Source: an uncultured Gammaproteobacteria bacterium (GTDB taxonomy: Bacteria; Pseudomonadota; Gammaproteobacteria; Xanthomonadales; SZUA-36). Taken from it: a stretch of DNA of 64,000 nucleotides. The stretch lies in the NCBI GenBank assembly GCA_963759155.1, contig CAVWXX010000027.1, positions 136,144 to 200,143 on the forward strand, written 5' to 3'. Position 1 is the stretch's first letter; each line of letters starts with the position of its first letter. Below, one piece after another: positions 15,659 to 64,000 of the stretch. The notes beneath the pieces were generated by a model. That model worked only from the letters and a program-made list of their open reading frames with translations. It made no database searches and had not been told where the DNA came from. The translations under genes and the position numbers were made by a program.

Positions 15659-15660
15659 AT

Positions 15661-19699: not shown

Positions 19700-19930
19700 T
19701 TTAGTCCATCCACTTAGAAAGCTATTTTTGTGCGCATATACTAGCCGAACTCGACCGCCATGGTCGGAAGAATTGTTTCGACAAGGGGCTAATTGACCGG
19801 TTATGGGAAACAGCCATGTGCAGCTGGTGGGATGTCATGAATCACCCGTGTGGCCTTCCATACTCCGCCAGGGCTTGCACACCGGTTTTGTGCTGCCGGC
19901 CAGCACGATTGAGACAGAAACTCCCCTGGT

Positions 19931-20686: not shown

Positions 20687-20762
20687 ATCAGTTCTGGCCC
20701 GCTGTGCGTGTTATTTGGCTGGTTGGTCTGGCAAACATGGGTTTCAAAAACTGCCGGACAGT

Positions 20763-21680: not shown

Positions 21681-21699
21681 CGGGTGTACTCAACGCGCC

Positions 21700-37900: not shown

Positions 37901-39248
37901 TGCCACCAGTTTCATACCCGTCAGGGAGACGGCACAGGCGAGCGAATATTTCAAAATAACGCCATTGCAAGAAATCGTGTGGCACATGGGGCTTTATGCG
38001 TTTCTGACGACCTGGGTCAGCATCGTTTTGATCTCGATACTGGGTAGTGTCTTTTTGCGCTTCACGGCCGCGTCGCCAGGCTTGTATTCCTCACGTGGGC
38101 TCAAAACTGCTCTGTTGATGTACAGGATGAAAAAGCTGAACTGGATTCAACAACAGTGGACCTGGACCATTACCGGGCAGTATCTGCGCGCGCTCGCTGG
38201 CTTGCGTTTTACTCGGGTGGGTGCCTCGGAGTGCGACGTCATGTTCAATCTTGTCCCGGAAGCTGCCAGTGCCGATGCCAAGGTGTTCTGGTCCAATGGC
38301 TGTTTTACCAACATGCTGGATTACGGTGCTGAGCACACAGAGTTGCGCCAGCTTGATATGCCTTTGAATTTCTTTAGTGGCAATAACAGTGTGGCGGAGC
38401 ACGGACGTTTACCCGCCAATTTCCTGTTGGGCGTCTCGACACCGGTAAGTGAAATACAGTTCAGGCGACAAATGCAGTCGCGCCCGGGTGAGCCGCTCAC
38501 GGTTGCCGGAAACCCGCCATTAAGATTTGCGAACGCAGACCCTGGTGCGGAGTGTGAAGCTGACAGGCTACCGACCCTGCCATTATTCCTGGCGCGTGTT
38601 TTTCTGAACGACATTTTCAGTATCGGAATCCTGCGTATTGCCAATGTGCTTGTTTACGTGATTTTGTACAGTGCACTATTAAGACTGGGAGGACACGTTC
38701 TCCTTAGTGCCTTGATTGCCCTGGCGCTCACAGAGCTGACGTTGATCATGGCCTGTGTTGTGATCAAGAAGTTTCTCGTGGGGAGCCATTGGGGCTCGGA
38801 TCACTCAACTCCGTTCTGGTCCTGGCGGCACTTCAGTTATTTCTTCGCTCAGGATTGTTTCTTTGCCTGGTGCAGGATTTTCCTGAGATTTGCAGCTGGA
38901 ACCGTGCTGACGAATCCTGTCTTGAGGTGGATGGGCTGTAAAATTGGTAAACGAACCATTGTCAGTTCACCGATGCAGGCCTCCGATTGGAACGCGGTAA
39001 AATTTGGCAACGACTGTGTGGTTGCGGGCTTTCTGCAATTCCATACCTTTGAGAATATGACCTTGAAGTTGAAATTGACCGATATACAGGATGGCAGTGC
39101 CGTTAACTTTGGTGCCACGGTCATGGGTGGTGCAGTCATCGAATCAGAGACTAATCTGGAGCCATTGTGCATGGTTTTGAAGGAGATGCACCTACAGCCA
39201 GGTACTTACGAAGGCAGCCCCGCTGAACGGGTGGATAGTTACAGATGA
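34971..39248 (+). CDS. Pls/PosA-family membrane-embedded single-module NRPS (A-T plus three TM-flanked terminal domains)
   Basis: A-domain cores FYTSGSTGMPKGV, NTYGPTE, YRTGDK, GRIDTQLKVRGHRVE and PLSGKIDR. T domain DNGGHSIVIAQL. No C or TE domain. The C-terminal ~700 aa alternates hydrophobic helix pairs with three soluble hexapeptide-like segments. Confidence 0.85.
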   Translation: MMTAISTLSVFLAFFLLAFAAWRRYLWVAQRESDAQEDNCPYSLTEVFSDRHLISVPHQKGVRWLTDVFSRSARKFPDHTALQIPHTGESLTYAELDERAEQVAFALSPYLTGPDQVVAVAMSQDNWQIVASHLGILKAGGTLMFLDTSLPESLITHMLEDAKPVVILTRGEDKFRDLPTVDVLNLPKERPRREAPHWLDDPEQRLATIFYTSGSTGMPKGVECHHAGYVNLALSYADYLDLIPGMDATTLTSSLGYDGSISEMYSAWVSGCAVVLLTSDEVRSGPDLLPVLRAAEVTVLFCPPVLLTTLSHEPEVDLPYPLCRYIIPAGEAFPAALVEPWTRARRQVINTYGPTEASTDTSRQSLRPGEPVTIGSPLANVTYVILEIDKLTPLPHGETGELCIGGVHVGRGYRNLPEQTSAKFITHPQFGRLYRTGDKCKIDAHTQRVHFLGRIDTQLKVRGHRVEVQAVEDILQTQIHEVESAVLDYQNGELVAFVVAPLISNPEMHNAVPAPEAWAARTTEILARQLPSPSVPSRIFLVDNFVMKPLSGKIDREHLPNLSGLLKRAGGDAKDSYHPIQSSHQDEGQGPVSEVSAAIKPGDKEVLAICRQVFDTPLGWDDVFADNGGHSIVIAQLAQRLQAAGWQVPVRALLSDCDTARKIVNRPGETQSTTDSPASSAHFGKHGGQRDEVAAKVLSPGYFTMLQALFLALLYAPPLVGFLGLVAFSEVGEFFMTGLLWEFIAVGFLMYLVALVYPFANLLWIMFIKLCMGGHIYRNNVTPGVYPKWSRMHLRTWCVGRLEQSVLRPMGTFFRSAPLMAYVLRRLGARVGRNLQCASDVEFFGPLDLLSIEDDVAIQARAYIHMLRWVGQDLHIGPVYLGSGCKIGMRSGVANDVTVGRGSWITPFTPILGDVGANELWEGSPARLSGRCTAMKRTASHCRYTLPIWLLETLNIFMQVFFEFCLVVVPTALVTWFATSFIPVRETAQASEYFKITPLQEIVWHMGLYAFLTTWVSIVLISILGSVFLRFTAASPGLYSSRGLKTALLMYRMKKLNWIQQQWTWTITGQYLRALAGLRFTRVGASECDVMFNLVPEAASADAKVFWSNGCFTNMLDYGAEHTELRQLDMPLNFFSGNNSVAEHGRLPANFLLGVSTPVSEIQFRRQMQSRPGEPLTVAGNPPLRFANADPGAECEADRLPTLPLFLARVFLNDIFSIGILRIANVLVYVILYSALLRLGGHVLLSALIALALTELTLIMACVVIKKFLVGSHWGSDHSTPFWSWRHFSYFFAQDCFFAWCRIFLRFAAGTVLTNPVLRWMGCKIGKRTIVSSPMQASDWNAVKFGNDCVVAGFLQFHTFENMTLKLKLTDIQDGSAVNFGATVMGGAVIESETNLEPLCMVLKEMHLQPGTYEGSPAERVDSYR

Positions 39249-49129: not shown

Positions 49130-50620
49130 TCAGAGCGTTCTGTTGATTTGACCGTTTACTCTTTTCTCAAGCTGATCGATCAGCTCACCACTGTCATCAA
49201 CCAGGTTCAGCTGCATTGGCATTTTGCCGATCGCATGGGTTGCGCAGGACAGGCAGGGGTCATAGGCGCGAATCGCCACCTCCACCTGGTTCAGCAGCGC
49301 CTCACTCAAACGGTGTCCATCCAGGTACTGGTTAGCTACCTTGCGGATAGACTCGTTCATAGCCTGGTTGTTGTTGGTGGTTGATACGATCAGGCTGGCC
49401 TTTTCAACGATTCCCTGATCATCAATTTCGTAGTGGTGAAACAGGGTGCCGCGCGGTGCTTCAATGACGCCGGTGCCGGCGCGCTGTAACTCGCCCTTTG
49501 TGCGCAAATCCTTGCCCATGAGATCATTGTCGCATAGCAACTCAGCGATGGCCTCGGTGCAATGCAGCAGTTCGATCAGCCTGGCCCAGTGATAGCCCAT
49601 GGTTGACTGTACCGGCAGACCATTACCAATCGCCAGGAATTCCCTTCGTTGGGTTTCTGCCAACGGGGTTGAAATAAAGTCACAGTTGTTGATACGGGCC
49701 AATGGACCGACCCGGTACCAGCCTTCCTCTTCACCCAGTGAGGTGATGAACGGGAACTTCATATAGCTCCAGTCCTTCACGCTTTCGCGGATATAGTCGT
49801 TGTAATTTCTATAATCGATGTGGTCAAAAATGGTTTCACCCAAATGATCTCTTGCGCGCAATCCACCGTGATAGAGTTCGAATGCACCATCGGCCCGGAC
49901 CTGGCTCATCATGCTGGTTTCGATAGCGGCAAATGCCATGTTGTAGTCGTACTGTTCAAAAAACACCTTTTTTATCAGTTCAACAGCACCCTGAGCCCAG
50001 CCGATCATCTGGGCGATATCAGTCTGCAGGTAGCGTATTTCATTCAGCCTCAGTGACTTGTTGACACCACCCGGTATGGCGCCGGTGCCGTGAATTCGCT
50101 TTCCGGCCGTTACACGGATAACTTCCTGTCCGTATTTACGCAGCAGAACACCCTGTTTTGCGAGTTCGGGGCTGTCCTCAATGACACCGACAATGTTGCG
50201 GTGATGGACCTCGTCATCGTGGCCGAACAAGAGGTCAGGTGAGCACAGGTGGAAAAAGTGCAGGGCATGTGACTGCATCGTCTGTCCAAAATGCATCAAA
50301 CGACGAATCTTTTCCGCCGTTGGTGTCAGTTCACGTGCACCAACGATCATATCGGTTGCTTTTGCAGCAGCGAGGTGATGGCTGACGGGACAAATGCCAC
50401 ACAGACGTTGTACCAGTACCGGTAACTCCCAATAAGGCCTTCCCTGTATGAATTTTTCAAACCCTCTGAATTCAGTGATGTGAAGACGTGCCTGCCGGAT
50501 GTTGCGGTTTTTGCCCTGCAGCAATGTGACCTTGCCGTGTCCCTCGACACGTGTCAGGGGCTCAATAACAATACGCTTCAAGTCTTGAGGGTCTGTTGCT
50601 GTTTCCAATGCTGATGTCAT
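49130..50620 (-). CDS. hoxH: [NiFe] hydrogenase large subunit, NAD-reducing (group 3d) type
   Basis: RVEGHG, RLCGICPVSHH and the C-terminal DPCLSCATH followed by a cleavable extension. Confidence 0.92.
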   Translation of the reverse strand: MTSALETATDPQDLKRIVIEPLTRVEGHGKVTLLQGKNRNIRQARLHITEFRGFEKFIQGRPYWELPVLVQRLCGICPVSHHLAAAKATDMIVGARELTPTAEKIRRLMHFGQTMQSHALHFFHLCSPDLLFGHDDEVHHRNIVGVIEDSPELAKQGVLLRKYGQEVIRVTAGKRIHGTGAIPGGVNKSLRLNEIRYLQTDIAQMIGWAQGAVELIKKVFFEQYDYNMAFAAIETSMMSQVRADGAFELYHGGLRARDHLGETIFDHIDYRNYNDYIRESVKDWSYMKFPFITSLGEEEGWYRVGPLARINNCDFISTPLAETQRREFLAIGNGLPVQSTMGYHWARLIELLHCTEAIAELLCDNDLMGKDLRTKGELQRAGTGVIEAPRGTLFHHYEIDDQGIVEKASLIVSTTNNNQAMNESIRKVANQYLDGHRLSEALLNQVEVAIRAYDPCLSCATHAIGKMPMQLNLVDDSGELIDQLEKRVNGQINRTL

Positions 50621-50665
50621 CTCGATTTCTCTTTATCGGTCTGTCAGTGAATTAGTCATCACGAA

Positions 50666-51235
50666 TTAGTCATAGTGAATCAGTGAATACGGGAAGTTGA
50701 CGGCGTTGCCCGCGATGACCTCGGTCAGGAACAACCAGAGCGCGTCGGCTGCTGGCGGGCACCCGGGCAGGAAATAATCTACGCGCACGACCTCGTGTAT
50801 CGGATGCACCTTGTCGAGTAATAAAGGGATTTCCACGTCATTGGGTACGTGCGGGTTCTCCACACCGATGCCGTGGATGTAGGCCTCTTCGAGGCAGTCC
50901 TTCAGGTCAAACTGGTTACGCATGGTCGGAACGCCACCATTGACGGCGCAGGCGCCCACAGCCACCAGAACGTCGCAATTGTTGCGAAACTCACGCAGGA
51001 CCTCAACGTTGTCAACATTGGCAACGCCGCCCTCGATCAACCCGATATCACACTTGCCAACGGTTTTTATGTCGGTCAATGGCGTGCGATCGAACTCGAC
51101 CAGTTCGACCAGTTGCAGGATTCGTTCATCGATATCCAGCAACGACATATGGCAGCCGAAACACCCGCATAAAGCGGCTGTGGCGACAATCAGTTTTTCT
51201 TTGGGTCTGGCTTCGGCTAATTGAACGTCATTCAT
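50666..51235 (-). CDS. hoxY: [NiFe] hydrogenase small subunit
   Basis: CGCFGCHMSLLD, GACAVNGG and LPGCPP. ATG at 51235 overlaps the hoxU stop by 8 nt; the track start at 51328 is an extension. Confidence 0.88.
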   Translation of the reverse strand: MNDVQLAEARPKEKLIVATAALCGCFGCHMSLLDIDERILQLVELVEFDRTPLTDIKTVGKCDIGLIEGGVANVDNVEVLREFRNNCDVLVAVGACAVNGGVPTMRNQFDLKDCLEEAYIHGIGVENPHVPNDVEIPLLLDKVHPIHEVVRVDYFLPGCPPAADALWLFLTEVIAGNAVNFPYSLIHYD

Positions 51236-51980
51236 CTGGACCACCATTGATAAAGGGCTTTTTCGCTGAATGATGCTTGGCGGCATCACCGACCACGCTG
51301 ATGGGCAGGCAATCGTAAAGACGCTCACCTACCGGGGTTTCATAGCCCAGATGCTTGGGCAATATCGCGCCGGTTGGACAGACAGAGACCGCCTTGTCGG
51401 TGATCGCAAGTTGCGTATCCACAGCCTTGCCGCTGGGTGAATTGAATATGATCCTGGTTCTGTGACCGCGACCGCTCAACGAGAATACGGACTTCTTGTC
51501 AATGTCACGGCTGACACGGACACAAAGACCACACAGAATGCAGCGGTTGAAGTAGAAAACAATGTCCGGATGTGATGCATCAATTGACCGCTTGGGGAAG
51601 AAGTGCGTGAAATGCGGGTTCAACATGCCGGTCTGGTAGGCCACGGCCTGTAACTGGCAGGCGCCGCTCTTTTCACAGGCAGGACAGATGTGGTTACCTT
51701 CAACAAACAGCATCTGCAAGAGTGTCCGCCGTTTGTCAACAATGGCCTCGGAGCTGTTGTCCACCTCCATACCTTCGCCAGCGGGCAAGGTGCAGGAACA
51801 CTGGTGTTTACCATTGACATCAACCACGCAAATCCGGCAACTGCCATGTGGTTTATAATCGGGGTTGTGACACAGGTGCGGAATGTATTCACCGGCCCTC
51901 AGGGCGGCGTCCATGACGGTCTCACCGTCCTCAAAGGGTATTTCTTTACCATCGAGTCTGAATGTTTTTTCCGTGCTCAT
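51228..51980 (-). CDS. hoxU: NAD-reducing hydrogenase diaphorase Fe-S subunit (NuoG-like)
   Basis: 2Fe-2S motif CHNPDYKPHGSCRICVV, plus CPACEKSGACQLQ and CILCGLCVRV. Confidence 0.88.
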   Translation of the reverse strand: MSTEKTFRLDGKEIPFEDGETVMDAALRAGEYIPHLCHNPDYKPHGSCRICVVDVNGKHQCSCTLPAGEGMEVDNSSEAIVDKRRTLLQMLFVEGNHICPACEKSGACQLQAVAYQTGMLNPHFTHFFPKRSIDASHPDIVFYFNRCILCGLCVRVSRDIDKKSVFSLSGRGHRTRIIFNSPSGKAVDTQLAITDKAVSVCPTGAILPKHLGYETPVGERLYDCLPISVVGDAAKHHSAKKPFINGGPDE

Positions 51981-53764
51981 CGTTCATACCTGATATGTGC
52001 GGCCTCGTCATCTCGTCCGGTGATATGCCTGGAAACCTCCAGTGCAGCATCAAGGTCGAACGCCGGTTCGTAACTGCGGTTCAGCAGACGTTTCGAATAA
52101 ATGCCGGGAAACTTTTCCAGGGTATCCAGTATTGAGTTGGGCGCCGTTGTGCCGAGTCCACAATGGGCCGTTTTTTGCATGAGATGGCCAATCTTTTTCA
52201 TCTCTTCAAGGTCGTAAGCGGTCGCGTGGCCGACCATGACTTTATTGAGAAGATTTTCCATCAACGTGCCACCAATACGGCAGGGCGTGCAGAATCCACA
52301 ACTTTCATGACAGAAAAACCGGTTGAAATTCTGAACCATGTCAAGCAGGTCACGTTGCTGGTTAAAGATCATGAAAGAGCCGCCGGTCGGGACATCCTCA
52401 AAGGCAATGGTGCGATAAAACTCCTGCGGTGGAATGGTGAATCCAGCAGCCCCGGATACCTGAACTGCCTGGGTGTCCTCGGCACCGCAATCTTCCAGAA
52501 TCTGTCGAATTGAAACACCGTACGGATACTCGTAGATACCTGGCCAGGCACAATCACCGCTGATACTCAGTAGCTTGGTGCCACAGGATTGCTCCGTACC
52601 GGCGGATTGGAACCAGTCGGCGCCAAACACCGCTATTCGCGCCGCGGCGACAAATGTTTCGACGTTATTGACCACCGAGGGTTGATTTTTATAGCCATGT
52701 GTCACGGGGAAGGGCGGGCGGTTTCGCGGAATACCGCGTTTACCCTCAAGTGATTCGATGAGTGCTGATTCCTCGCCACAAATGTAAGCACCCGCACCCA
52801 TGTGTATATCGATGTCGAAATTAAAGCCCTTGCGTCCAAGGATGTCCTTACCCAGCAGGCCGGCATCGCGCCGATCCTGCAGTAGGCTCTCCAGCGCAGG
52901 CCGCAGATAAAGGTATTCACCCCGCAGGTACAGGAACCCCTTTGTTGCGCCTATGACACCTGCACACATGGTCATGCCCTCGAAGACTACATTGGCATAA
53001 CTGTTAAGCAGAATCCTGTCCTTGAATGTGCCCGGTTCGCCTTCGTCGGCATTACAGATGACGTAATGTTCCTGCCCCGGGGCATCGCGGCAGAAACGCC
53101 ATTTGGTTGCGGTCTTGAAACCGGCACCGCCACGCCCGCGTAATCCTGACTTATCGATAGACTCCAGCAGGGCATCACTGCCCCTGACAGCAAAGGCTTC
53201 AATGGCGCTGCCACGGGTGATCACATCATCGAGGAGCTTGTCGCGGCGTTGAATGTTGTCTTTGATCACAAAGAACTTCTTTGGCCATTTGGTAATGGGG
53301 ATACCAGCCTCAATGAGCCCGACCATTTTGTGAATGCGATCTTCGTCCAGGCGGGAAACTGCCATGCCATTAACCAGCAAGGCCGGCCCCTGGTCACAGA
53401 TGCCGGTACATGAAGTAAGGTCAACGCTTACACGTCCATCTTCCCTTGGCTTACCGGGCTCAACACCCAGCTTTTTGCACAGGCTCTCGAGCAGGGGAAG
53501 GCTACCCAGCATTCTGTCAGTGATGTTGTCACTGAAGCGAATATCGAAATCACCCCGGTCACTCGTATGCAAAAATGCATAGAAATAGGCAATCGAAACA
53601 ATTTCTACCCGGGGCATATTCAAGTGCTCAGAGAGCAGTTGGATGGCCTCTTCCGGTATGTGGGAATATTGGTGTTGAATGCTGCAAAGATGTTGCAGTA
53701 ACAGGTCAGGCGCATTATCCGTGTCGGATAGGAGCCCACTTACAAAGCGGCTGATATCACTCAT
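51977..53764 (-). CDS. hoxF: NAD-reducing hydrogenase diaphorase subunit (NuoE-NuoF fusion)
   Basis: FMN/NADH motifs GRGGAGF and GAGAYICGEESALIESLEG, plus the 4Fe-4S motif ESCGFCTPCR. ATG at 53764; the track start at 53785 is TTG. Confidence 0.9.
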   Translation of the reverse strand: MSDISRFVSGLLSDTDNAPDLLLQHLCSIQHQYSHIPEEAIQLLSEHLNMPRVEIVSIAYFYAFLHTSDRGDFDIRFSDNITDRMLGSLPLLESLCKKLGVEPGKPREDGRVSVDLTSCTGICDQGPALLVNGMAVSRLDEDRIHKMVGLIEAGIPITKWPKKFFVIKDNIQRRDKLLDDVITRGSAIEAFAVRGSDALLESIDKSGLRGRGGAGFKTATKWRFCRDAPGQEHYVICNADEGEPGTFKDRILLNSYANVVFEGMTMCAGVIGATKGFLYLRGEYLYLRPALESLLQDRRDAGLLGKDILGRKGFNFDIDIHMGAGAYICGEESALIESLEGKRGIPRNRPPFPVTHGYKNQPSVVNNVETFVAAARIAVFGADWFQSAGTEQSCGTKLLSISGDCAWPGIYEYPYGVSIRQILEDCGAEDTQAVQVSGAAGFTIPPQEFYRTIAFEDVPTGGSFMIFNQQRDLLDMVQNFNRFFCHESCGFCTPCRIGGTLMENLLNKVMVGHATAYDLEEMKKIGHLMQKTAHCGLGTTAPNSILDTLEKFPGIYSKRLLNRSYEPAFDLDAALEVSRHITGRDDEAAHIRYER

Positions 53765-54186
53765 GGTGCACGCTCTGAAGGTCAAACAAAAAAGAACGGT
53801 GACACCAAAAACATAGTTTCATAACGGTATTCCTTCTGCTAAACCAAGAGCATCAGTGAACACTTATTATGATTGGAGTAGAACACGTATAGAGGGCGTT
53901 TTAACTGATCTGGATCACTAATTTTGCCGATTTCAGTCGGTGTAAAAAGCCGCTGTTTCTTATGGCTATTCAGGTCATGTAAATAGGAGTTTTTTCGACT
54001 GTTTTTAATGGTTTTGCGCTTTTTTTTGAGACTTGGTTGGCGAATTTGAATGTCATTGGGCTACAATCAGAATGGCTGTTTTCCGGGTGTGTCCGAAGCG
54101 GTCGTATCACTTCGTTGCAAATTGCGCTGTTTTGCGGAAATAGGTTGAACAATAATGCCGGCAGTTACCATTTGGAGACCTGATCG

Positions 54187-55457: not shown

Positions 55458-55590
55458 TTAATTGGGGTCAGAGTAAAAACTCTTGGATTAATTGGGGTCA
55501 GAGTAAAAACTCAAGAGTTTTTACTCTGACCCCAATTAACTTAAAACTCAAGAGTTTTTACTCTGACCCCAATTAACTGACCCCAATTAA
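55458..55590. repeat. REP-like palindromic element cluster (core TTAATTGGGGTCAGAGTAAAAACTC)
   Basis: Forward copies at 55458-55482 and 55488-55512. Reverse copies at 55515-55539 and 55552-55576. Partial reverse copy at 55578-55590. Confidence 0.9.
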
Positions 55591-55618
55591 CTTCAGGCTG
55601 AGCGTGTTGAAGACAAGA

Positions 55619-56806
55619 TTACCTTTGAGTATCAACGATTACCCGCTCGACATCGCCGGTAAACTGTAATCGGTTTTCCATTTCAGGGGTCAGGTATACC
55701 GTTCCATTCTCGTCCACGACGGCAACCTGCTGTAAATCGAGTGCTCGGGCAACTTCAGGCCAGCCCTCCAGACCGGCAACCACCAGCGCCGTTGCGGCAG
55801 CATCTGCCAGTACTCCTTCCCTGGTGATAAGCGTGACCGATGCAATGTCCTTTGCAGGCCAACCGGTACCCGGGTCCAGAATGTGCGGGTAGCGTTCGGT
55901 TTTGTCCTGGCGGAAACGCTCATAGTTACCAGAAGTAAAAATGGCTTCATCACCCTCCACCTGCACAGAGCCGACCGTGCCACCGCCGGGTTTTCTGACA
56001 GCGACTCGCCAGGGCCGGTCACCGTGTGTACCGATGGCACGCAGGTCACCGCCGGCATTGACGATGGCATTGCTGATACCCAAAGAACGCAGCCTCTCGA
56101 TGGTGAGATCAACCGCATAGCCCTTGGCGATACCACCAAAGTCCAGTTGTACGGCAGGGTTGTCAGAGCTCAACTCAAGGCCGTTGATATGAATGTCATT
56201 ACTCGAAGGCTGGAGGTCCATTATCGCGCTGATTTGAGACGCGGAAGGGGGAGGGCCCTCAATCGGGTAATCGGATGTATGGAAGCCCCATAGCCTTATC
56301 AAAGCGCCAATAGCGGGGTTAAAACGGCCACCTGTAGCGGTTTCAAGGGGTTGTGAGCGACGGACCATTTCGACGATATCTTCGTCTGCGGTTGCGGGTC
56401 TGCCTTCGGCAAAAGCCTTGTTGATTTCCACCAGGCGACCCGGTTCCCAGGCATGCCAGTCACGGTGCATGGCCTGAAACATCTGTTGAATTTCGGTGAA
56501 TGCGTGTCCTGCCTCTTCTGGTGAGGCACCCCAGAGCTTGATCTCGACAATCGTGCCAAACACATATAACTCAGCGCTCTGCTCCTCGTCACGCTGACAG
56601 GCCGAAAGAAGCACCAGGCAAAACAGGGCAATGAGGATAATTGGGGTCAGAGTAAAAACTTTGAAGTTTTTACTCTGACCCCAATTATCCCTTGAATCTC
56701 TCGGAGCTGAATTAATGATGGTGGGATTTACCTTCGCTTGAGCACTCAGATTTGCCTGAGCAATCCTCACCGGTGCAACCTGCGCAGTTGCCTGGTCCTT
56801 CACCAC
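55619..56806 (-). CDS. apbE: FAD:protein FMN transferase ApbE (lipoprotein); true start uncertain
   Basis: ApbE-family body (NPAIGALIRLWGF, DFGGIAKGYAVD, AIVNAGGDL) and lipobox LLSAC. The upstream part of the ORF overlaps a small ORF and contains a REP-like palindrome. Confidence 0.85.
   Translation of the reverse strand: MVKDQATAQVAPVRIAQANLSAQAKVNPTIINSAPRDSRDNWGQSKNFKVFTLTPIILIALFCLVLLSACQRDEEQSAELYVFGTIVEIKLWGASPEEAGHAFTEIQQMFQAMHRDWHAWEPGRLVEINKAFAEGRPATADEDIVEMVRRSQPLETATGGRFNPAIGALIRLWGFHTSDYPIEGPPPSASQISAIMDLQPSSNDIHINGLELSSDNPAVQLDFGGIAKGYAVDLTIERLRSLGISNAIVNAGGDLRAIGTHGDRPWRVAVRKPGGGTVGSVQVEGDEAIFTSGNYERFRQDKTERYPHILDPGTGWPAKDIASVTLITREGVLADAAATALVVAGLEGWPEVARALDLQQVAVVDENGTVYLTPEMENRLQFTGDVERVIVDTQR
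56639..56686. repeat. REP-like palindrome of the same family as 55458-55590
   Basis: AATTGGGGTCAGAGTAAAAACT, TTGA, AGTTTTTACTCTGACCCCAATT. It lies inside the annotated 5' end of apbE. Confidence 0.9.
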
Positions 56807-56876
56807 GGCGATGGGTCAGGCCGAAGCCGATAAACAGCACGATGAGTAGTAGCAGGGGTGCGATATAACTTTCCAT
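56712..56876 (-). CDS. small membrane-anchored Cys-rich protein (NqrM-like / FeoB-associated Cys-rich-like)
   Basis: 54-aa ORF that I translated by hand: MESYIAPLLLLIVLFIGFGLTHRRGEGPGNCAGCTGEDCSGKSECSSEGKSHHH. It has one TM helix and a CxxC-x5-C-x5-C cluster. It starts 5 nt after the rnfA stop and is absent from the ORF track, which lists only ORFs of 60 aa or longer. Confidence 0.5.
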   Translation of the reverse strand: MESYIAPLLLLIVLFIGFGLTHRRGEGPGNCAGCTGEDCSGKSECSSEGKSHHH

Positions 56877-56881
56877 AGCCC

Positions 56882-57457
56882 TTATAGTAGCCCTGCAAAG
56901 CCCATAAATGCCATGGAAAGCGTTCCAGCGATAATCAGCACAAGACCGGTTCCCTTGGCGATACCGGGCACGTCTGAAAACTCAACCGATTCGCGAATAG
57001 AGGCCATCAGTACCAACGCAAGTGTCAGGCCAAGACCGGCGCCGACGGCGAAAGTCACACCCTGGAGAAAGCCGTACCCGCGGTTGGTCTGGAAAATCGC
57101 CAGGCCTAAAATAGCGCAGTTGGTTGTCATCAGGGGCAGGAAAATACCAAGTTGCCGGAATAAAACCGGGGACAGTTTTTTAACCGCCATCTCAACGATT
57201 TGTACCAGCGATGCAATCACGATTATGAACGAGATAATACGCAGGTAGGGCGCAGTTTCCAGTATGTAAGTATTTAGAAACCAGGCACTTGCCGCGGTCA
57301 GTACCAACACAAAAATATTGGCCAGACCCATACGCAGACCGGTTTCAACACGGGCGGAAACACCCATGAAGGGACACAGGCCCAGGAACATGGCCAGGGT
57401 AAAGTTGTTGACCACCATGGCGGAGAAAAAGATGGAAAATAGCGACTGGTCACTCAT
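56882..57457 (-). CDS. rnfA: Rnf electron transport complex subunit A
   Basis: 191 aa with FLGLCPFMGVS. 4-nt overlap with rnfE. Confidence 0.9.
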   Translation of the reverse strand: MSDQSLFSIFFSAMVVNNFTLAMFLGLCPFMGVSARVETGLRMGLANIFVLVLTAASAWFLNTYILETAPYLRIISFIIVIASLVQIVEMAVKKLSPVLFRQLGIFLPLMTTNCAILGLAIFQTNRGYGFLQGVTFAVGAGLGLTLALVLMASIRESVEFSDVPGIAKGTGLVLIIAGTLSMAFMGFAGLL

Positions 57458-58089
57458 GATGCGGCCTCCGTCGCCTGTTCGGCTTTCGTTTTCTTACGTT
57501 GCTCGATAGCACCCATCGCCAGCAAGATAAAACCGAGCGTCAGGAATCCGCCCGCTGGCAGAACCATGATGACCCAGGGCTCAAAGTTGGGGCCAAACAA
57601 CGAAACACCCAAAAAGCTGCCTACGCCGAGAATTTCACGGAAGCCGCCCATCATGACCAATGCGATGGTAAAGCCAATGCCGGTGCCGAAAGCGTCGAGC
57701 AAAGACCGGAATGGATTGTTCTTGGATGAAAATGTTTCCTGGCGTCCAAGGATCATACAGTTCACAACGATCAGGGCGATAAAGGCGCCCAGTTCTTTAT
57801 GTTGCACCGGTGCATAGGCCTGCAGCAGCATGTCGGCCAGTGTTACAAAGGTCGCAATGACCAGGATGTAGGCTGAAATGCGCACTTCATGTGGTATGAA
57901 TCGCTTACAGGTTGAAATCAGGACGCTTGAGCAGGACATGACAAAGAATGTCGCGCCGCTCATGGCCAGTGCATTGGCCACGCTGTTAGTGACGGCCAGG
58001 GCCGGGCACAGTCCAAGCATCTGTATCAGTACCGGGTTTTCTTTCCAGATACCGCGAACAAAATCTTGTGTTGGGCTAGTCGTTCTCAC
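57454..58089 (-). CDS. rnfE: Rnf electron transport complex subunit E
   Basis: 211 aa with WKENPVLIQMLGLCPALAVT. Confidence 0.9.
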   Translation of the reverse strand: MRTTSPTQDFVRGIWKENPVLIQMLGLCPALAVTNSVANALAMSGATFFVMSCSSVLISTCKRFIPHEVRISAYILVIATFVTLADMLLQAYAPVQHKELGAFIALIVVNCMILGRQETFSSKNNPFRSLLDAFGTGIGFTIALVMMGGFREILGVGSFLGVSLFGPNFEPWVIMVLPAGGFLTLGFILLAMGAIEQRKKTKAEQATEAAS

Positions 58090-58835
58090 TGTGCTACCTC
58101 CGCTGTTGCTGCATCAGCAGGTGATGGTGGAATGCCTTTATCCAATATGGGTTTCCATTCTTCCAGTGCGTTATTGATGATCTGGATGACGGCCTTTGAA
58201 GAGATTGTTGCGCCGGTGATCATGTCAATCTCATTGGGTTGACCCTTGCCGGCGCCTTCTTTGACGCCGAGCATAGGGGTTTCAGGCCCTGCGAAAAACT
58301 GATCAACAAAGTTCATATCCTTGAAGATCTTATCACCCAGTCCCGGTGTTTCCTTACTGTCCAGAATCTTCATGCCTGACAATTTTCCGGTAACCGGGTC
58401 ATGTCCGAAAATGACCATGATGACATCCTGAAAGCCCGATTCTCCGCGAGAAATTGCAACGCCCGTGGTCTCGCCATTTGCATCGCGGCCGACATAAACA
58501 CGCTTATACTCGCTCTCTTTTGCACCGCTTGGTAATTCAGCGGAGAGGTTATTGTCAACAAGGTAAAAAGTATCGTAACGCTCAACCCCCGGCAAAACCT
58601 CATAAACGGCCAGTTGCAGTTGCTCGGCTTTCCACTTATCAATAATAGGCTTGGTGTGCAGGTTCACCAGAACGATCAACAAGCCGGCTAATGCGCCTGC
58701 GATCGCCAGTGTGGCGACCAGGCGAAATGTTGAAACCTCTTTAGGTGCCTGTTCGTCTGTCGACGCCGGGCTATCCGTGTTCTCCACTTTGATATCCACG
58801 TCGATATGACCCTGGTTGTTGCTTTCCTGGCTCAT
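58086..58835 (-). CDS. rnfG: Rnf electron transport complex subunit G (FMN-binding)
   Basis: 249 aa. TM anchor and flavinylation motif DMITGATISSKAV. Confidence 0.88.
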   Translation of the reverse strand: MSQESNNQGHIDVDIKVENTDSPASTDEQAPKEVSTFRLVATLAIAGALAGLLIVLVNLHTKPIIDKWKAEQLQLAVYEVLPGVERYDTFYLVDNNLSAELPSGAKESEYKRVYVGRDANGETTGVAISRGESGFQDVIMVIFGHDPVTGKLSGMKILDSKETPGLGDKIFKDMNFVDQFFAGPETPMLGVKEGAGKGQPNEIDMITGATISSKAVIQIINNALEEWKPILDKGIPPSPADAATAEVAQ

Positions 58836-59848
58836 TTGTCCGCCTCCTTTTTCTTACCGGAGGTTCCGAATAACCGTGGCTGCGTGGCGCGGTTAATAAA
58901 GGGGACCAGTGCATTCATCAATAGAATGGAATACATCACACCTTCTGGCAGACCGCCCCAGATTCGAATGATGACCGTCAGAAGGCCTATCCCGAAACCG
59001 AATACCCAGCAACCCTTGGTGCTTAACGGGGAGGTCACCATGTCGGTTGCCATGTACCACGCGCCGAGCATCAAGCCACCCGAGAACAACATGAACCAGG
59101 GGGAAAAATCTGATATGCCGATAACGTAAAACAAACCGGAAACCAGAAAGGTGGTCACGAAAATACTGACGGGGATATGCCAGTTAAGGTGACCACGCAC
59201 GGCCAGGTAAATACCGCCCAACAGGATCAACACTGCAGAGGTTTCACCCACGGAGCCATTGATGGTTCCCAGCATAAGATCCAAAAGCGGTGTTGCTACC
59301 GGATCATCGCCGAATTTCATGTTGCCTAACGGTGTCGCCGCCGTTACCGTGTCCGGCATCGGGGTCATGAAAGGCAAGGCAAAGTTATCTCCTTGCAGGT
59401 TCCACCAGTGTTCTGTGCCCGATGGCCAGGTGGTTATTGCGACAGGGAAAGCCGCCTGTAAAAAAGCGCGACCGACCAGTGCAGGATTAAAGATATTCTG
59501 ACCAAGACCGCCGTAGATGAGTTTGCCAAAACCCATGCCAAATACGCCACCCAGGAACGCCATCCAGAGCGGAAAACCGGGTGGAAGACACAAACCAAGC
59601 AACAGACCGGTAATCATGGCTGACCCATCTGCAACTGACCCGGGGTTGGATCCAAACATGCGTTCTGTAATCAGACAGCCTGCCACACTCGCAATGATGA
59701 CAAGTATTGCACTTGGACCAAAAAAATAGATCGATGAGGCGATAACCGGCAGCAGGCTTATCACCACCGACCACATGATTTTCGTCGTCGAGTCAGGCGA
59801 GCGAACATGCGGTGACGCAGTTATTATTACCTTGGTATTATCTGTCAT
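58832..59848 (-). CDS. rnfD: Rnf electron transport complex subunit D
   Basis: 338 aa, polytopic, NqrB/RnfD family, with DTVTAATPLG at the flavinylation site. Confidence 0.9.
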   Translation of the reverse strand: MTDNTKVIITASPHVRSPDSTTKIMWSVVISLLPVIASSIYFFGPSAILVIIASVAGCLITERMFGSNPGSVADGSAMITGLLLGLCLPPGFPLWMAFLGGVFGMGFGKLIYGGLGQNIFNPALVGRAFLQAAFPVAITTWPSGTEHWWNLQGDNFALPFMTPMPDTVTAATPLGNMKFGDDPVATPLLDLMLGTINGSVGETSAVLILLGGIYLAVRGHLNWHIPVSIFVTTFLVSGLFYVIGISDFSPWFMLFSGGLMLGAWYMATDMVTSPLSTKGCWVFGFGIGLLTVIIRIWGGLPEGVMYSILLMNALVPFINRATQPRLFGTSGKKKEADK

Positions 59849-61170
59849 GATTTCGGCAGTCTTCTAAGTTGTGTTTTTGACATGGCAAAATACTGGGAAA
59901 GGGGAATGTTGGACGGGCAGACGAATGAACAGGATCCGCACAGCATGCAATCGTTCAAATGCGCCTTTTCTACTAATTCTTCATAACGCTCCGCCTTGGC
60001 CAGATCTTTCATCCATTGTGGGTTCAGGAAAATAGGGCAGGCTTCAAGACATTTTCCGCAACGAATACACGGCAAAATATCCTGTCGTTTACATTCGCTT
60101 TTTGAAAGTACAAGTATGCCGCCTGTGCCCTTGAGCACCGGCACATCCAGGTCGGATATTGCCTGGCCCATCATCGGACCGCCAAATACAATTTCGGCTG
60201 CGTCATCCGTCATGCCACCGCAATGCTCAATGACATCCCGCAGTTTCGTACCAAAAGGGATTTTCCAGTTACCCGGTTTTTTAATACCACGTCCGCTTAC
60301 CGTCATGATACGTTCAATCAAGGGGTGCCCGGTTTGAAAAACTGCGGCTACGTTGGCAGCCGTAGCCACATTCTGAACCATCGCACCAATCGCACTTGGA
60401 AGAGCGCCGGATGGGACCTCGCGGCCCATGACGGCCTTGATTAACATTTTCTCGGCACCCTGTGGATATTTAACCGTCAAGGGCTGAATAGTGGCGTCGA
60501 GATCAGCGGGCTTGGCTTTCCGCATTACTTCTATGGCATCGGGCTTGTTGTTTTCAATCCCTATAACACAGCGTGTGATACCCAGTGCCTTAAGTTCAAT
60601 TCGAATGCCTTCGTAAACCATCTCCGGTTGCTCAAGCATCACGCGGTGATCTGAGGTGAGATAGGGTTCACACTCACTTCCATTGATGATTAACAACTCA
60701 ATCGGCTGGTCTTTTGGAGGGCACAGCTTGACATGGGACGGAAACGCCGCGCCACCCAGGCCAACGATACCGGCCTTGGCGATTTCCTTGGAAAGATCTT
60801 CTTCTTTCACATCCTGCCAGCGCGGTATCATCCGGTTTCGTCGCATCTGCGAGGAATTCTGGTCTACGGTAATACGGATTGACGGTACCATCTGGCCATT
60901 AGGGTGAGGCCAGAGCTCAATCGATTTCACCGTCCCGGCAGCCGTGGCATGCACGGTCGATGAAATAAAACCCGCCGCCTCGGCAATCACATCGCCCCGC
61001 TCAACATGGTCGCCGACTTTAACCAGGGCTTTCGCCGGCGATCCAATATGTTGTGACAGCGGAAGAATGACTTCCTTCGGGAACGGAAACCGCTTCGAGG
61101 GTATCCCCGAAGTGATGTCCTTGTTCTCCGGCGGATGAACCCCGTGTTTAAAACTTGGTAAACCTTTCAT
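59845..61170 (-). CDS. rnfC: Rnf electron transport complex subunit C
   Basis: 441 aa. Motifs GLGGAAFP and CIRCGKCLEACP, plus CMLCGSCSFVCP (two 4Fe-4S sites). Confidence 0.9.
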   Translation of the reverse strand: MKGLPSFKHGVHPPENKDITSGIPSKRFPFPKEVILPLSQHIGSPAKALVKVGDHVERGDVIAEAAGFISSTVHATAAGTVKSIELWPHPNGQMVPSIRITVDQNSSQMRRNRMIPRWQDVKEEDLSKEIAKAGIVGLGGAAFPSHVKLCPPKDQPIELLIINGSECEPYLTSDHRVMLEQPEMVYEGIRIELKALGITRCVIGIENNKPDAIEVMRKAKPADLDATIQPLTVKYPQGAEKMLIKAVMGREVPSGALPSAIGAMVQNVATAANVAAVFQTGHPLIERIMTVSGRGIKKPGNWKIPFGTKLRDVIEHCGGMTDDAAEIVFGGPMMGQAISDLDVPVLKGTGGILVLSKSECKRQDILPCIRCGKCLEACPIFLNPQWMKDLAKAERYEELVEKAHLNDCMLCGSCSFVCPSNIPLSQYFAMSKTQLRRLPKS

Positions 61171-61192
61171 AATTGAATTATCCGTTCAACAA

Positions 61193-64000
61193 TCAATTAA
61201 AAGGCTCAGCGCGTTTAATCAGCTTATCTAATCCCTTCTCTTTAGGGTTCATCGGATCACCCGGATGGATACACTCTGCCGGACAGGCTTCTGCAGCCAT
61301 TACCAGTTGCTTGAATGTACCTGCCTTGGCATCACCGATTTCAGCCTGCTGATCGTCATTGTAGACAAACACCTTGGGGTTGACCTTCAGGCAATCGTCA
61401 CAGGAGGTACAACGTATTGTGTCGATATAAGGTTCATTGCCATCGAACTCATCCGCTGGCGCTGCCGCCGGTGCCGCCGGTGCAGCTTCTGGTGCTGCCG
61501 TTTGCGCGACTGCGGCAGGTGCTGCCCCGGTTGTTGCTGCCGGAGCAGCAGCCGGTGCTGCGATACTGAAATCGGCCGGGGTATCAATTGCCGGACCATT
61601 CCAGCTCTCTGCCTTTTCGAGCAATGCCGATACAGTCGTGTCAGCGTTGCCCTTCAACAGACCTTCCGCCATCCTTCTTGCAATCAATAACGGATACTGG
61701 GTTGTCAGCTTGGCAATTTTTGCCTCGTACTCAGCTGTGATTTGAGTAATTTTGGCTTCCAGTTCTTCAGTCATGCTCTCGGCAACGGTATCACGCATGT
61801 TATCGGAAACATCAAGACCTGCGATTTCCTTCAACTGGGCCCAATAACCTAAACGCTCCACTGCAAGCCCGACGATTTCATCCGAGGCGGTCATCTTGCT
61901 GAGATGGCGGCTGGGATCAACCGTGTAAATGAAGGGTGTTACATCTGCACGTTCATCAGCGTCCATATCCACGTACTCATGGAAAGGCACCAGTTCGTCT
62001 TCACCATTGGCCTTCTTGAAGTGCTTACGGAAACGCGCTTCACCCAGTGCCCAGTCTGCCGTCGTAACAGGCAGGGTCAGTTTCTGCTCTTTGCCGTCCT
62101 CATCAAGGAAAGCCAGGTCGTAGGTCGTCCACGTATCGAGCGGTGAAGGGTTACCTTCAAGATCAATACATTCTGAGAAGGTGACGCCGGCATCCGGATC
62201 AAACACGATATTCGGTACCGCACGGCTTTCCAGGGCAAGCCTGGCCGCATCGGGTGCGCCAAAATCAGACAGGCCCCACTCAGGAGGACAAGGTGTGTTG
62301 AGGATAAACAGCGCAGGACGTCTTGCCTGCAGGCCTTTCAGTACATTCTGGATCAGGTGAGATGGTGTGGCCTGCGAAGACTGCATGACGAAGACACCAC
62401 GGTGGGCGATCGCGATAAGGGCCAGTTCTTTACGAACTTCTTCCTTACCATGATGTTCCATGCCGTATTCGGCCATGTCTGATACCTGGCTGGTAAAGCC
62501 TGATGTACATGCCTGGCCACCCGTGTTGGAGTAGACCTGTGTATCAACAACGATGACACGGATCGGCTTGTTGGTGGCCATGACCCTTGAGAGGTTCTGG
62601 AAACCGATGTCCATCATGGCGCCATCACCACCGACCGCAAACAGCGGCGGACACAGCGTGAACTCATCCTCTGTGAACTGCTCCCATTCGAATTCGTCGA
62701 AGAATTCTTCATCTGCTTCGGCATCATAGCTATCTGACAGCAGTTTCTCTGCGCGGCGCACGGAAATGAAACCGTCAGCCATCTTGCGCATATGACCTTC
62801 AAAGATACCAACCGCTACCGATGGTGCATCCTGGAACAGGTGGTTAACCCATGGGAACGGGTAGGGGTTGTAAGGATAGGATGATCCCCACACCGAACTA
62901 CAACCGGTTGAGTTGGTGAAGCCAAGGTTCGCACGACCGCGACCACTTGGACCTTCTTCATAACGCCATTTGAGATCTTTCAATTCTTCGATGGCCTTAC
63001 GAATCAGCAGCACCTGCTCTTTCTTATCCCCGCTCAGTTCGACTGAAAGTGCTTCTTCATCGGCAGACACATCCGCCAGGTCTGTTTCTGAAATCAACAG
63101 GGAATGCGCTTTTTCATCCAGGGACTTGATCAAGCGACCAAGCTGCTTCACATGCTCTTCAACACGTGGACCCATGAATGCATTGACGGTGGAGAGCAAC
63201 AGGTGGATGGTGGTTTTCTCACCACAGCCCATACATGCACCATCACCACCGGTCATGGACATGTAATTGCTTTGTTTCAGCAACAGGGATGACATAACAC
63301 CAATGCCTTCATCCAGGCTGGAAATCTTGATGTACTCGTCATTGGTTTCAGGCAGGTTGCGCCAGAGCTTCCAGTTGGACTCGAGCGTCTCCTGGAACTC
63401 GTCTGTCTGCCGTATGCTCTGCAAGGCGCCATCTGCACAGACGGCCACACAAATGTCACAACCCTTACAGGTTTCAGGATTAACCGTGATTGACAGCAGA
63501 CCGCCTGAACCTTTCTTTTTGTTCTCTGGCAAGTCGAAGAACGGTGCTGTTTTGGCTAATGGGAAATCAGCGACTGCCGCGTAAACCAGGTTGAACTGTT
63601 CATCGACTTCAGCACGACGTTCGGCATCCCAGTTATTCTTGCCGGCGACCGTCTGATAAGCCTGTGAAAAAACTTTCGCAAAGGTCTTGAATGTTCCGCT
63701 GGAGATAATGGTACGCGACTCTTTGCCAAGGTTCTTGATCAATTGAGTGAAGCGTGACAATGGATTGTCCGGTGTTGCGACGGTTCTTACCGCAGCTTCC
63801 AGGACCTCTTCTACAGTACTGACTACACCCGGAATGGCAGAGTCGGGACACTGGGTCCAGCACTTGGCGCAACCGGTACATTTTTCGGGAATAAACTCGG
63901 GGACATTGAAGCGGACCGCCGACATGTTACGCATACTCGATGTCGCCGCTGGTATGGCCGCGATAGCGGTAAATGGATCAGCGATAATATCTTTGCCGGT
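61193..64000 (-). CDS. pyruvate:ferredoxin oxidoreductase-family (PFOR/NifJ-like) protein, C-terminal ~935 aa, fused to a C-terminal ferredoxin domain (5' end outside window)
   Basis: The frame stays open upstream of the track Met through to nt 64000 (TGKDIIADPFTAIAAIPAATSS-M...). Domain V has two Cys clusters (CTGCAKCWTQCP, CKGCDICVAVCA). TPP-domain motifs are GGDGACMGCGEKT and GGDGAMMDIGFQNL. An Ala/Pro linker is followed by CTSCDDC...ACPAECIHPG. Confidence 0.85.
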   Translation of the reverse strand, partial: TGKDIIADPFTAIAAIPAATSSMRNMSAVRFNVPEFIPEKCTGCAKCWTQCPDSAIPGVVSTVEEVLEAAVRTVATPDNPLSRFTQLIKNLGKESRTIISSGTFKTFAKVFSQAYQTVAGKNNWDAERRAEVDEQFNLVYAAVADFPLAKTAPFFDLPENKKKGSGGLLSITVNPETCKGCDICVAVCADGALQSIRQTDEFQETLESNWKLWRNLPETNDEYIKISSLDEGIGVMSSLLLKQSNYMSMTGGDGACMGCGEKTTIHLLLSTVNAFMGPRVEEHVKQLGRLIKSLDEKAHSLLISETDLADVSADEEALSVELSGDKKEQVLLIRKAIEELKDLKWRYEEGPSGRGRANLGFTNSTGCSSVWGSSYPYNPYPFPWVNHLFQDAPSVAVGIFEGHMRKMADGFISVRRAEKLLSDSYDAEADEEFFDEFEWEQFTEDEFTLCPPLFAVGGDGAMMDIGFQNLSRVMATNKPIRVIVVDTQVYSNTGGQACTSGFTSQVSDMAEYGMEHHGKEEVRKELALIAIAHRGVFVMQSSQATPSHLIQNVLKGLQARRPALFILNTPCPPEWGLSDFGAPDAARLALESRAVPNIVFDPDAGVTFSECIDLEGNPSPLDTWTTYDLAFLDEDGKEQKLTLPVTTADWALGEARFRKHFKKANGEDELVPFHEYVDMDADERADVTPFIYTVDPSRHLSKMTASDEIVGLAVERLGYWAQLKEIAGLDVSDNMRDTVAESMTEELEAKITQITAEYEAKIAKLTTQYPLLIARRMAEGLLKGNADTTVSALLEKAESWNGPAIDTPADFSIAAPAAAPAATTGAAPAAVAQTAAPEAAPAAPAAAPADEFDGNEPYIDTIRCTSCDDCLKVNPKVFVYNDDQQAEIGDAKAGTFKQLVMAAEACPAECIHPGDPMNPKEKGLDKLIKRAEPFN

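Follow-up and report, generated by a model that had tools for sequence, protein, structure and literature searches.

A predicted long pyruvate:ferredoxin oxidoreductase with a tethered ferredoxin inside an rnf operon that recurs across bacterial phyla

The Rnf complex is mostly regarded as belonging to anaerobes, in which it trades electrons with the soluble ferredoxin pool. Here, we describe an rnf operon of another kind, found in a stretch of 64,000 nucleotides (below, the window) from an uncultured gammaproteobacterium (Xanthomonadales, SZUA-36; assembly GCA_963759155.1, contig CAVWXX010000027.1, positions 136,144 to 200,143). In this operon rnfC, rnfD, rnfG, rnfE, and rnfA follow the gene of a long relative of pyruvate:ferredoxin oxidoreductase (PFOR), which we call PFORL and which is predicted to end in a ferredoxin domain on a flexible tether. 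The parts are of known kinds (Rnf, PFOR, and single-cluster ferredoxin); their combination, a long PFOR with a tethered ferredoxin inside an rnf operon, is a new variant.

How does the locus compare with described systems? With the Rnf complexes of clostridia and acetogens (A. woodii, 9eri; C. tetanomorphum, 7zc6) it shares six subunits, a long-form RnfB whose polyferredoxin part is joined to a membrane anchor, an RnfC with NADH/flavin mononucleotide (FMN) and two-cluster domains, flavinylation-type motifs in RnfD and RnfG, and an adjacent apbE. The gene order B...C-D-G-E-A is also that of the clostridial and acetogen type and of the rnfBCDGEA operons of Bacteroidota and Chlorobi. Unlike these operons, the present one has a 5-kb oxidoreductase gene between rnfB and rnfC, two genes for a second oxidoreductase (korA and korB) and one for a protein that we call X upstream, and a small Cys-rich membrane protein encoded after rnfA. 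The electron donor or acceptor would differ too: in place of a soluble ferredoxin it is apparently one held by a covalent tether.

PFORL itself resembles the homodimeric PFORs (1b0p, 6cin; NifJ/TIGR02176) in its domain order, its thiamine pyrophosphate (TPP) motif, its three [4Fe-4S] sites, and its substrate Thr and Arg. It differs from them in being about 500 amino acids (aa) longer, with an extension whose fold is unmatched in the Protein Data Bank (PDB), a tether, and a fourth cluster domain. Two further systems offer partial parallels. The pyruvate:NADP+ oxidoreductase (PNO) of Euglena and Cryptosporidium is a PFOR with a C-terminal flavoprotein like NADPH-cytochrome P450 reductase. There, as in PFORL, a covalently attached module for electron transfer lengthens the C terminus of a PFOR core and connects the oxidation of pyruvate with a pyridine nucleotide; PNO involves no membrane complex and no ion translocation, whereas PFORL bears a small ferredoxin and would leave the nucleotide site to RnfC. 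The other parallel is the E2 component of the 2-oxoacid dehydrogenases, which has swinging lipoyl domains on Ala/Pro-rich linkers. Both would be small carriers on a flexible Ala/Pro tether that visit several active sites of an assembly oxidising pyruvate or 2-oxoglutarate; the carrier here is an iron-sulfur domain instead of a lipoyl-lysine, so that the analogy is one of function and not of homology.

The nearest precedent in the literature concerns the gill symbiont of Solemya velum, in whose rnf2 operon a PFOR lies between rnfB2 and rnfC2 and pyruvate was proposed as the electron donor (Dmytrenko et al. 2014, PMC4287430); a bidirectional Hox hydrogenase was reported from the same genome (PMC4287430). 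This remark on rnf2 takes one sentence; a tethered ferredoxin, protein size, korAB-X, the spread across phyla, and a second form do not figure in the paper. The likeness of that PFOR to PFORL is one of gene position. In the searchable literature we did not find the tethered ferredoxin, a long PFOR subfamily, the korAB-X partners, the two forms described below, their phylogenetic breadth, or any biochemistry of them, and a 2025 survey of PFOR redox chemistry does not mention the long form.

The rnf operon and its long oxidoreductase

All features of the operon in the window lie on the minus strand (Table 1). As the original prediction had it, a PFOR-family open reading frame (ORF) that runs off the window edge ends in an Ala/Pro-rich linker and a single-cluster ferredoxin domain, 22 nt separate its stop codon from rnfC, overlaps of 4 nt join rnfC/D, D/G, G/E, and E/A, and a Cys-rich ORF of 54 aa follows rnfA. 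The PFORL frame has 935 codons in the window and no start before the edge at 64000, its first 747 codons lying beyond. An exact-sequence look-up of RnfC led to three public contigs. One of them, L001, is taken from a contig of 258 kb in GCA_942490725.1; along 14.2 kb it agrees with the window at 99.9% of positions and encodes the same proteins. It supplies the whole frame, giving a full-length PFORL of 1682 aa. Among the Rnf subunits in the window, RnfC, RnfD, and RnfE exceed their NCBIfam cutoffs, and RnfG and RnfA fall just under theirs, both with strong Pfam matches. A TGAT motif can be read in RnfG and a TAAT(P) motif in RnfD. We take these to be flavinylation-type motifs, i.e., sites of covalent FMN, and the presence of apbE in the operon fits with them.

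Is rnfB missing, as was originally proposed? A tblastn search found no homologue of it in the window. In L001, however, a gene of 283 aa lies directly upstream of PFORL, about 2.2 kb past window position 64000, and shares the 4 nt ATGA with the start of that gene. Its product matches TIGR01944 (84.9 bits, cutoff 68.7) and the Pfam FeS domain (PF04060, 48 bits), with additional Fer4 matches and a hydrophobic N terminus, and it aligns with the RnfB proteins of A. woodii (9eri_B, 4e-53, residues 4-263) and C. tetanomorphum (7zc6, 4.5e-50, residues 8-266). By these matches it is a canonical long-form RnfB, translationally coupled to PFORL. The same rnfB-PFORL junction is found in a second near-identical contig, L002. 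Hence, the proposed absence holds for the window and not for the operon, and it arises because the window ends inside PFORL; calls of a missing gene beside a window edge need the flanking sequence. The Rnf gene set, as read from the window and these contigs, is complete: RnfA, RnfB, RnfC, RnfD, RnfE, and RnfG are all encoded. In L002 (GCA_049665025.1) we also observed a single GAA to TAA change at 4809-4811, which places a stop at PFORL codon 1416 and would detach the last 265 aa (extension, tether, and ferredoxin) as an ORF of their own. It could be a true variant or an assembly error.

Upstream of rnfB, L001 encodes a 312-aa protein and a two-subunit 2-oxoacid oxidoreductase (korA and korB). 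The nearest solved relative of KorA is the 2-oxoglutarate enzyme (OGOR) of Magnetococcus (6n2n, 2.7e-79), which we take to have been characterised as an enzyme of the reverse tricarboxylic acid (TCA) cycle. The whole operon thus reads, as predicted from these contigs, korA-korB-X(312 aa)-rnfB-PFORL-rnfC-rnfD-rnfG-rnfE-rnfA-small Cys-rich ORF-apbE, the window holding its distal two-thirds.

What kind of enzyme is PFORL? Its Pfam domains come in the order POR_N, PFOR_II, POR, Fer4 (two motifs), and TPP_enzyme_C, i.e., domains I-II-III-V-VI. Phmmer matches it in the PDB to the PFORs of M. thermoacetica (6cin, 1.5e-74) and D. africanus (1b0p, 1.8e-72), and Foldseek matches it to both as well. In family alignments of 17 and 45 members, the substrate Thr and Arg, both CxxCxxCxxxC motifs of domain V, the cysteines of domain VI, and the GDG...DTQVYSNTGGQ motif are invariant, and the three [4Fe-4S] sites of PFORs are all present. 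In known PFORs, the residues that line up with the Thr (in YPITPST) and the Arg (in ACRAM) bind the substrate, an agreement that does not by itself fix the substrate of PFORL. PFORL looks like a 2-oxoacid:ferredoxin oxidoreductase of the pyruvate (PFOR/PorA) type with intact catalytic motifs, and we infer pyruvate as its substrate. Two insertions set the family apart in length: a helical one between the cluster motifs of domain V, originally put at some 70 aa and by alignment to 6cin nearer 80-100 aa, and a second, in domain VI, of some 85 aa. PFORL represents a distinct long subfamily of single-chain PFORs without a curated model of its own.

The C-terminal addition relative to classical PFORs comprises about 340 aa. 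For the last 343 aa, AlphaFold2 (AF2) gives a predicted local distance difference test (pLDDT) score of 80.6 overall, above 90 at residues 30-135, with a helix at 141-192. In this model and in that of the 935-aa fragment alike, a beta-rich extension domain and the ferredoxin domain are predicted with confidence, and a helix of some 50 residues follows the former. Foldseek found no fold match for the extension in the PDB; only the ferredoxin domain was matched, to ferredoxin I of D. africanus (1fxr_A; TM-score 0.83-0.84, root mean square deviation 0.9-1.2 Å), the protein that phmmer also finds (1dax, 1.1e-4). This domain, with the sequence CTSCDDC...ACPAECIHPG, follows a stretch that includes the 36-aa Ala/Pro linker AAPAAAPAATTGAAPAAVAQTAAPEAAPAAPAAAPA and over which, for about 45-50 residues, AF2 confidence is very low in both models. 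Its four cluster ligands (C1611, C1614, C1617, and C1653) are invariant across the PFORL family, and this full set favours a link between PFOR, ferredoxin, and Rnf. We read 79 PFORL C termini, two of them shortened (by the premature stop in L002 and by the contig end in L021), and all 77 intact ones carry CxxCxxC...C behind a low-complexity stretch that varies in length and sequence. On the motif matches and the models, the ferredoxin domain is real and, on its disordered tether, gives PFORL a predicted fourth cluster.

Table 1. Positions of the operon's features in the window, with one gene beyond its edge
Feature	Position	Strand	Evidence or remark
312-aa conserved protein between korB and rnfB	L001 3095-4033, ~3 kb past window edge		short X homologue by profile comparison
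PFORL, 3' part	61193..64000	-	2.8 kb, residues 748-1682 of 1682; open at the edge; stop 61193-61195
Domain-V [4Fe-4S] motif 1, CTGCAKCWTQCP	63845..63880	-	cysteines invariant in both alignments
Family-specific helical insertion between domain-V cluster motifs, ~80-100 aa	63515..63814	-	HMMER: query 810-909 against 6cin chain 708-726; AF2 shows helices
Domain-V [4Fe-4S] motif 2, CKGCDICVAVC	63437..63469	-	cysteines invariant
TPP/Mg motif GGDGAMMDIGFQNL...DTQVYSNTGGQ, domain VI	62513..62632	-	conserved in Form-1 relatives, lost in Form-2 paralogues
Family-specific C-terminal extension, predicted beta-rich domain then ~50-residue helix	61604..62209	-	AF2, last 343 aa
Predicted disordered Ala/Pro-rich tether, ~50 aa	61445..61603	-	pLDDT <50 in both AF2 models
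Predicted single-cluster [4Fe-4S] ferredoxin domain, CxxCxxC...C(P)	61196..61444	-	Pfam Fer4_13 37.9 bits, cutoff 24.5
rnfC, 441 aa	59845..61170	-	TIGR01945 529.8 bits, cutoff 245.95; Pfam RnfC_N, Complex1_51K, SLBB
rnfD, 338 aa	58832..59848	-	TIGR01946 322 bits, cutoff 207
rnfG, 249 aa	58086..58835	-	TIGR01947 101.3 bits, cutoff 102 (marginal); Pfam FMN_bind 59.1 bits
rnfE, 211 aa, GTG start	57454..58089	-	TIGR01948 219.9 bits, cutoff 213.4
rnfA, 191 aa	56882..57457	-	TIGR01943 222.3 bits, cutoff 229.3 (marginal); Pfam Rnf-Nqr 183.5 bits
Small Cys-rich ORF, 54 aa	56712..56876	-	starts 5 nt past rnfA
apbE, flavin transferase lipoprotein	55619..56770	-	Pfam ApbE 234.8 bits; gene call in L001; start codon uncertain

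Recurrence across phyla and a second form of the module

The module is not peculiar to this genome. A protein collection holds more than 120 full-length relatives of PFORL (1650-1695 aa, 62-94% identity), which carry generic names only, and a scan of one genome per species gave at least 590 relatives. Synteny was read from the best 80 loci by tblastn with the operon proteins, a locus being counted only if its flank was long enough. These loci come mostly from Gemmatimonadota, and further from Gammaproteobacteria (Woeseia, Haliea, Lysobacterales, and Chromatiaceae), Acidobacteriota, Planctomycetota, Bacteroidota, Hydrogenedentota, Calditrichota, and others. The gene directly after PFORL is rnfC in 63 of 65 loci. 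The fusion thus hardly ever occurs apart from rnf genes, which again favours the link between the two. Directly before PFORL lies rnfB in 58 of 66 loci, and in five more, all of Bacteroidota, it lies about 1.1 kb after rnfA instead. In most loci of the closer clade, korA, korB, and the 312-aa gene precede rnfB. The identities to the query of RnfB, RnfC, RnfD, RnfE, RnfA, and KorA track that of PFORL (r 0.73-0.94), a correlated divergence in keeping with genes that are inherited and transferred together. When all ORFs of the loci were clustered without bias, only two further conserved neighbours came out on the same strand, namely apbE, which follows rnfA in at least 30 loci, and an FNR-like gene in 17 loci, those of Bacteroidota included. 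The Bacteroidota variant (L071-L073, L080, and L082) has the order PFORL-rnfCDGEA-small ORF-FNR-like gene (329 aa, NAD_binding_1)-rnfB, followed by korAB in L071 and L073, the two of these loci whose flank reaches that far. L071 belongs to Algoriphagus kandeliae XY-J91, a cultured carrier.

A second form of the module emerged from the C-terminal region of PFORL. Its last 343 aa, searched against 1.84 billion representative proteins, match 527 clusters at E<=1e-30, and the top 150 representatives are mostly of about 800-890 aa rather than 1680 aa, 80 of them within 780-900 aa. One such homologue, P0183, is related to PFORL only over residues 1140-1682 and consists of a degenerate domain VI that lacks the GDG motif, then the extension, the tether, and the ferredoxin. 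We call Form 1 the arrangement of the window and Form 2 the order korA-korB-X-rnfB-PFORL paralogue-rnfCDGEA-small ORF-apbE, which was seen in five contexts (L085, L087, L088, L089, and L090; also L084 and L086). In Form 2, X has 835-874 aa and bears the extension, tether, and ferredoxin; the PFORL paralogue has 1494-1526 aa, or is split into 343 and 1080 aa, and has no ferredoxin. The paralogue also lacks YPITPST, the TPP motif, and the cysteines of the proximal cluster, and in two of three cases the domain-V clusters are gone too. It is in all appearance a pseudo-enzyme, catalytically dead and yet retained between rnfB and rnfC, and its retention points to a structural role of PFORL inside an Rnf assembly. 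Since the ferredoxin sits on PFORL in Form 1 and on X in Form 2, there seems to be one tethered ferredoxin per module. In one Form-2 locus (L085, 19342-21075) RnfD and RnfG are fused into a protein of 577 aa.

What, then, is the 312-aa protein encoded ahead of rnfB? It has no match in Pfam or NCBIfam, and plain BLAST against an X protein of 842 aa also gave nothing. A profile-profile comparison with X (hhalign) gave a probability of 99.1% and an E value of 9e-19. On this match we regard it as a short homologue of X that has a degenerate TPP-domain-like region and is without the extension and the ferredoxin.

The small Cys-rich ORF and the surroundings of the operon

In the 54-aa protein, a single transmembrane helix precedes a tail rich in Cys (C-x2-3-C-x3-8-C). 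Under a strict filter, at least 26 of 55 loci, which belong to several phyla, have a similar small ORF directly behind rnfA, and Form-2 loci have one too. Its match to Pfam FeoB_associated (PF12669) is weak (20.1 bits, gathering cutoff 27); among 20 syntenic relatives, six match this family at E<=0.1 (best 1.6e-5), and no other Pfam family matches more than one of them. The protein is a candidate for metal delivery, metal handling, or maturation. We had considered it as a substitute for RnfB, an idea ruled out by its single transmembrane helix, its three conserved cysteines, a family similarity limited to the weak FeoB_associated match, and the presence of rnfB.

The start of apbE is ambiguous (56690-56806). 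The sole in-frame canonical starts are GTG codons at 56770 and 56806, both of which overlap the 54-aa ORF and add more than 40 aa before the lipobox LLSAC, encoded in part by a palindrome. This perfect palindrome, with the core ATTGGGGTCAGAGTAAAAAC, has six copies in the window (0.01 expected by chance), confined to 56635-56690, a short way ahead of the lipoprotein signal of apbE, and to 55458-55597, between the convergent ends of apbE and a gene of the MgtC family. It looks like a repeat of the repetitive extragenic palindromic (REP) type, and the window has about 81 nt more of it than L001.

Some 2 kb from the operon, at 49130-53785 on the minus strand, the window encodes a NAD-linked [NiFe] hydrogenase of the HoxEFUYH type, with a fused HoxE-HoxF (602 aa), HoxU, HoxY, and HoxH. 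We had tried it as a partner of the module and dropped it: Hox is not among the conserved neighbours in the 80 loci, and we treat its adjacency as incidental. The other ORFs of the window encode an acyl-CoA dehydrogenase, an amino-acid permease, a major facilitator superfamily transporter, peptidases, beta-lactamase-like hydrolases, a pyridoxal phosphate enzyme, two pyridine-nucleotide-disulphide oxidoreductases, and a protein of 1425 aa (34971-39248) that resembles a nonribosomal peptide synthetase or a carboxylate reductase, has AMP-binding and phosphopantetheine-attachment domains, and is unrelated to the module. The window also carries ppdK (8681-11413), a gene that in heterotrophs serves gluconeogenesis as well. 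Among the 20 large window ORFs that were scanned we found no RuBisCO, ATP-citrate lyase, or other marker of autotrophy. The gene content, first described as autotroph-like, looks heterotrophic instead.

Proposed electron path, rival explanations, and meaning

How could these parts work together? We think that PFORL, the tethered ferredoxin, and RnfB probably form a dedicated electron path, in which the ferredoxin acts with RnfB and not in its place. The ferredoxin would be a swinging arm that takes single electrons at the distal cluster of PFORL, probably collects them from the neighbouring oxoglutarate-type enzyme KorAB as well, and delivers them to the polyferredoxin subunit RnfB; with these electrons Rnf would reduce NAD+ at RnfC and, in doing so, translocate Na+ or H+. 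PFORL, KorAB, and X may sit on or beside the cytoplasmic arm of RnfB and RnfC. Such an assembly would be an ion-translocating 2-oxoacid:NAD+ oxidoreductase that is independent of soluble ferredoxin. We favour the oxidative, energy-conserving direction as the usual one, because most carriers are heterotrophs and the content of the window looks heterotrophic. Under reducing, carbon-poor conditions the path might be reversed, with NADH and the ion gradient driving the carboxylation of acetyl-CoA.

A stronger proposal, which we put forward tentatively and with rather less than even confidence, is that PFORL, KorAB, and X are peripheral modules of a stable and hitherto undescribed Rnf supercomplex, a pyruvate/2-oxoglutarate:NAD+ oxidoreductase that translocates ions and in which a single tethered ferredoxin replaces the soluble pool. 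If so, the aerobic and facultative heterotrophs in which it is widespread (Gemmatimonadota, Bacteroidota, marine Gammaproteobacteria, Planctomycetota, and Acidobacteriota) would conserve, in the form of ion-motive force, some 100-200 mV that are lost with the pyruvate and oxoglutarate dehydrogenase complexes.

Several points weigh against the proposed path. Our observation of rnfB comes from the near-identical contigs L001 and L002 rather than from the assembly to which the window belongs. Two loci depart from the conserved gene order: in L047 other large ORFs stand in place of rnfC after PFORL (15080-22346), and in L053 rnfB lies downstream of a PFORL with an interruption in its match region; these may be rearrangements or assembly problems. 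Two more, L059 and L079, have no rnfB within the available flanks. Full-length PFORL scores 371.9 bits against TIGR02176, whose curated equivalog cutoff is 911.35, and its substrate specificity is not set by sequence. The AF2 model of the 935-aa fragment (pLDDT 69.9, predicted TM-score 0.59) is of moderate confidence only. Finally, the direction of electron flow cannot be read from sequence, and the association of the parts, the electron transfer, and the ion pumping are all predictions from gene order, conservation, and modelled structure.

The best surviving alternative keeps the same parts and turns the direction around: NADH and the ion gradient would reduce the tethered ferredoxin for the assimilation of acetate or CO2, PFORL making pyruvate from acetyl-CoA and KorAB making 2-oxoglutarate from succinyl-CoA. 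Rnf and the 2-oxoacid:ferredoxin oxidoreductases are generally known to be reversible, and this would suit a KorA whose nearest solved relative is presumably a reverse TCA cycle enzyme. The presence of ppdK in the window speaks for it as well, as does the fact that sulfur-oxidising symbionts carry the arrangement (PMC4287430). On the other side stand the lack of an autotrophy marker among the window ORFs scanned, their heterotrophic look, and the carriers themselves. Most carriers come from lineages that are known mainly as aerobic or facultative organoheterotrophs, among them Gemmatimonadota, Flavobacteriales, Algoriphagus, Haliea, and Planctomycetota. The reverse flow into reductive pyruvate synthesis that was originally predicted could occur; the gene content of the window, offered as its support, provides none, and the idea fits poorly with mostly heterotrophic carriers. 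We consider it unlikely as the main mode of the system.

It is also conceivable that the genes are merely co-regulated. PFORL would then be a free soluble enzyme whose ferredoxin domain lengthens its internal wire towards soluble acceptors, and there would be neither a complex nor an arm. PFORL and Rnf would each work with the ferredoxin pool, genes of linked metabolic roles are often found in one operon, and contact between PFORL and Rnf is without direct evidence, the AF2 models being silent on partners. However, co-regulation would hardly lead one to expect PFORL between rnfB and rnfC in many phyla, with reading frames that overlap or nearly abut, a dead PFORL kept at the same place in Form 2, or an extension and tethered ferredoxin that shift between PFORL and X and stay beside rnfB. 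These observations make this explanation very unlikely. The original idea of an Rnf without RnfB, in which the ferredoxin fused to PFOR takes its place and directly feeds electrons into RnfC or the membrane subunits or draws them from there, is right about the fusion and about the window, which has no rnfB, and almost certainly wrong otherwise, given the full-length long-form gene that directly precedes PFORL, translationally coupled to it, in two independent near-identical contigs and the rnfB that accompanies PFORL, before it or after rnfA, in nearly all countable loci across phyla.

The module, a complete Rnf operon with its own 2-oxoacid oxidoreductases and a tethered ferredoxin, recurs in hundreds of species whose phyla are known rather for aerobic heterotrophy. 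If the parts cooperate along the path from PFORL to RnfB, the oxidation of pyruvate, and probably that of 2-oxoglutarate, would be coupled to ion pumping, and, run backwards, the membrane potential would power the carboxylation of acetyl-CoA. Estimates of the energy yield of abundant sediment and soil bacteria would then change. The module would also be a new example of a swinging-arm electron carrier, and it could serve as a compact, ferredoxin-independent unit for engineering the interconversion of pyruvate and CO2. The natural series of pseudo-enzymes, with its dead PFORL and short X, should inform on how such assemblies are built.

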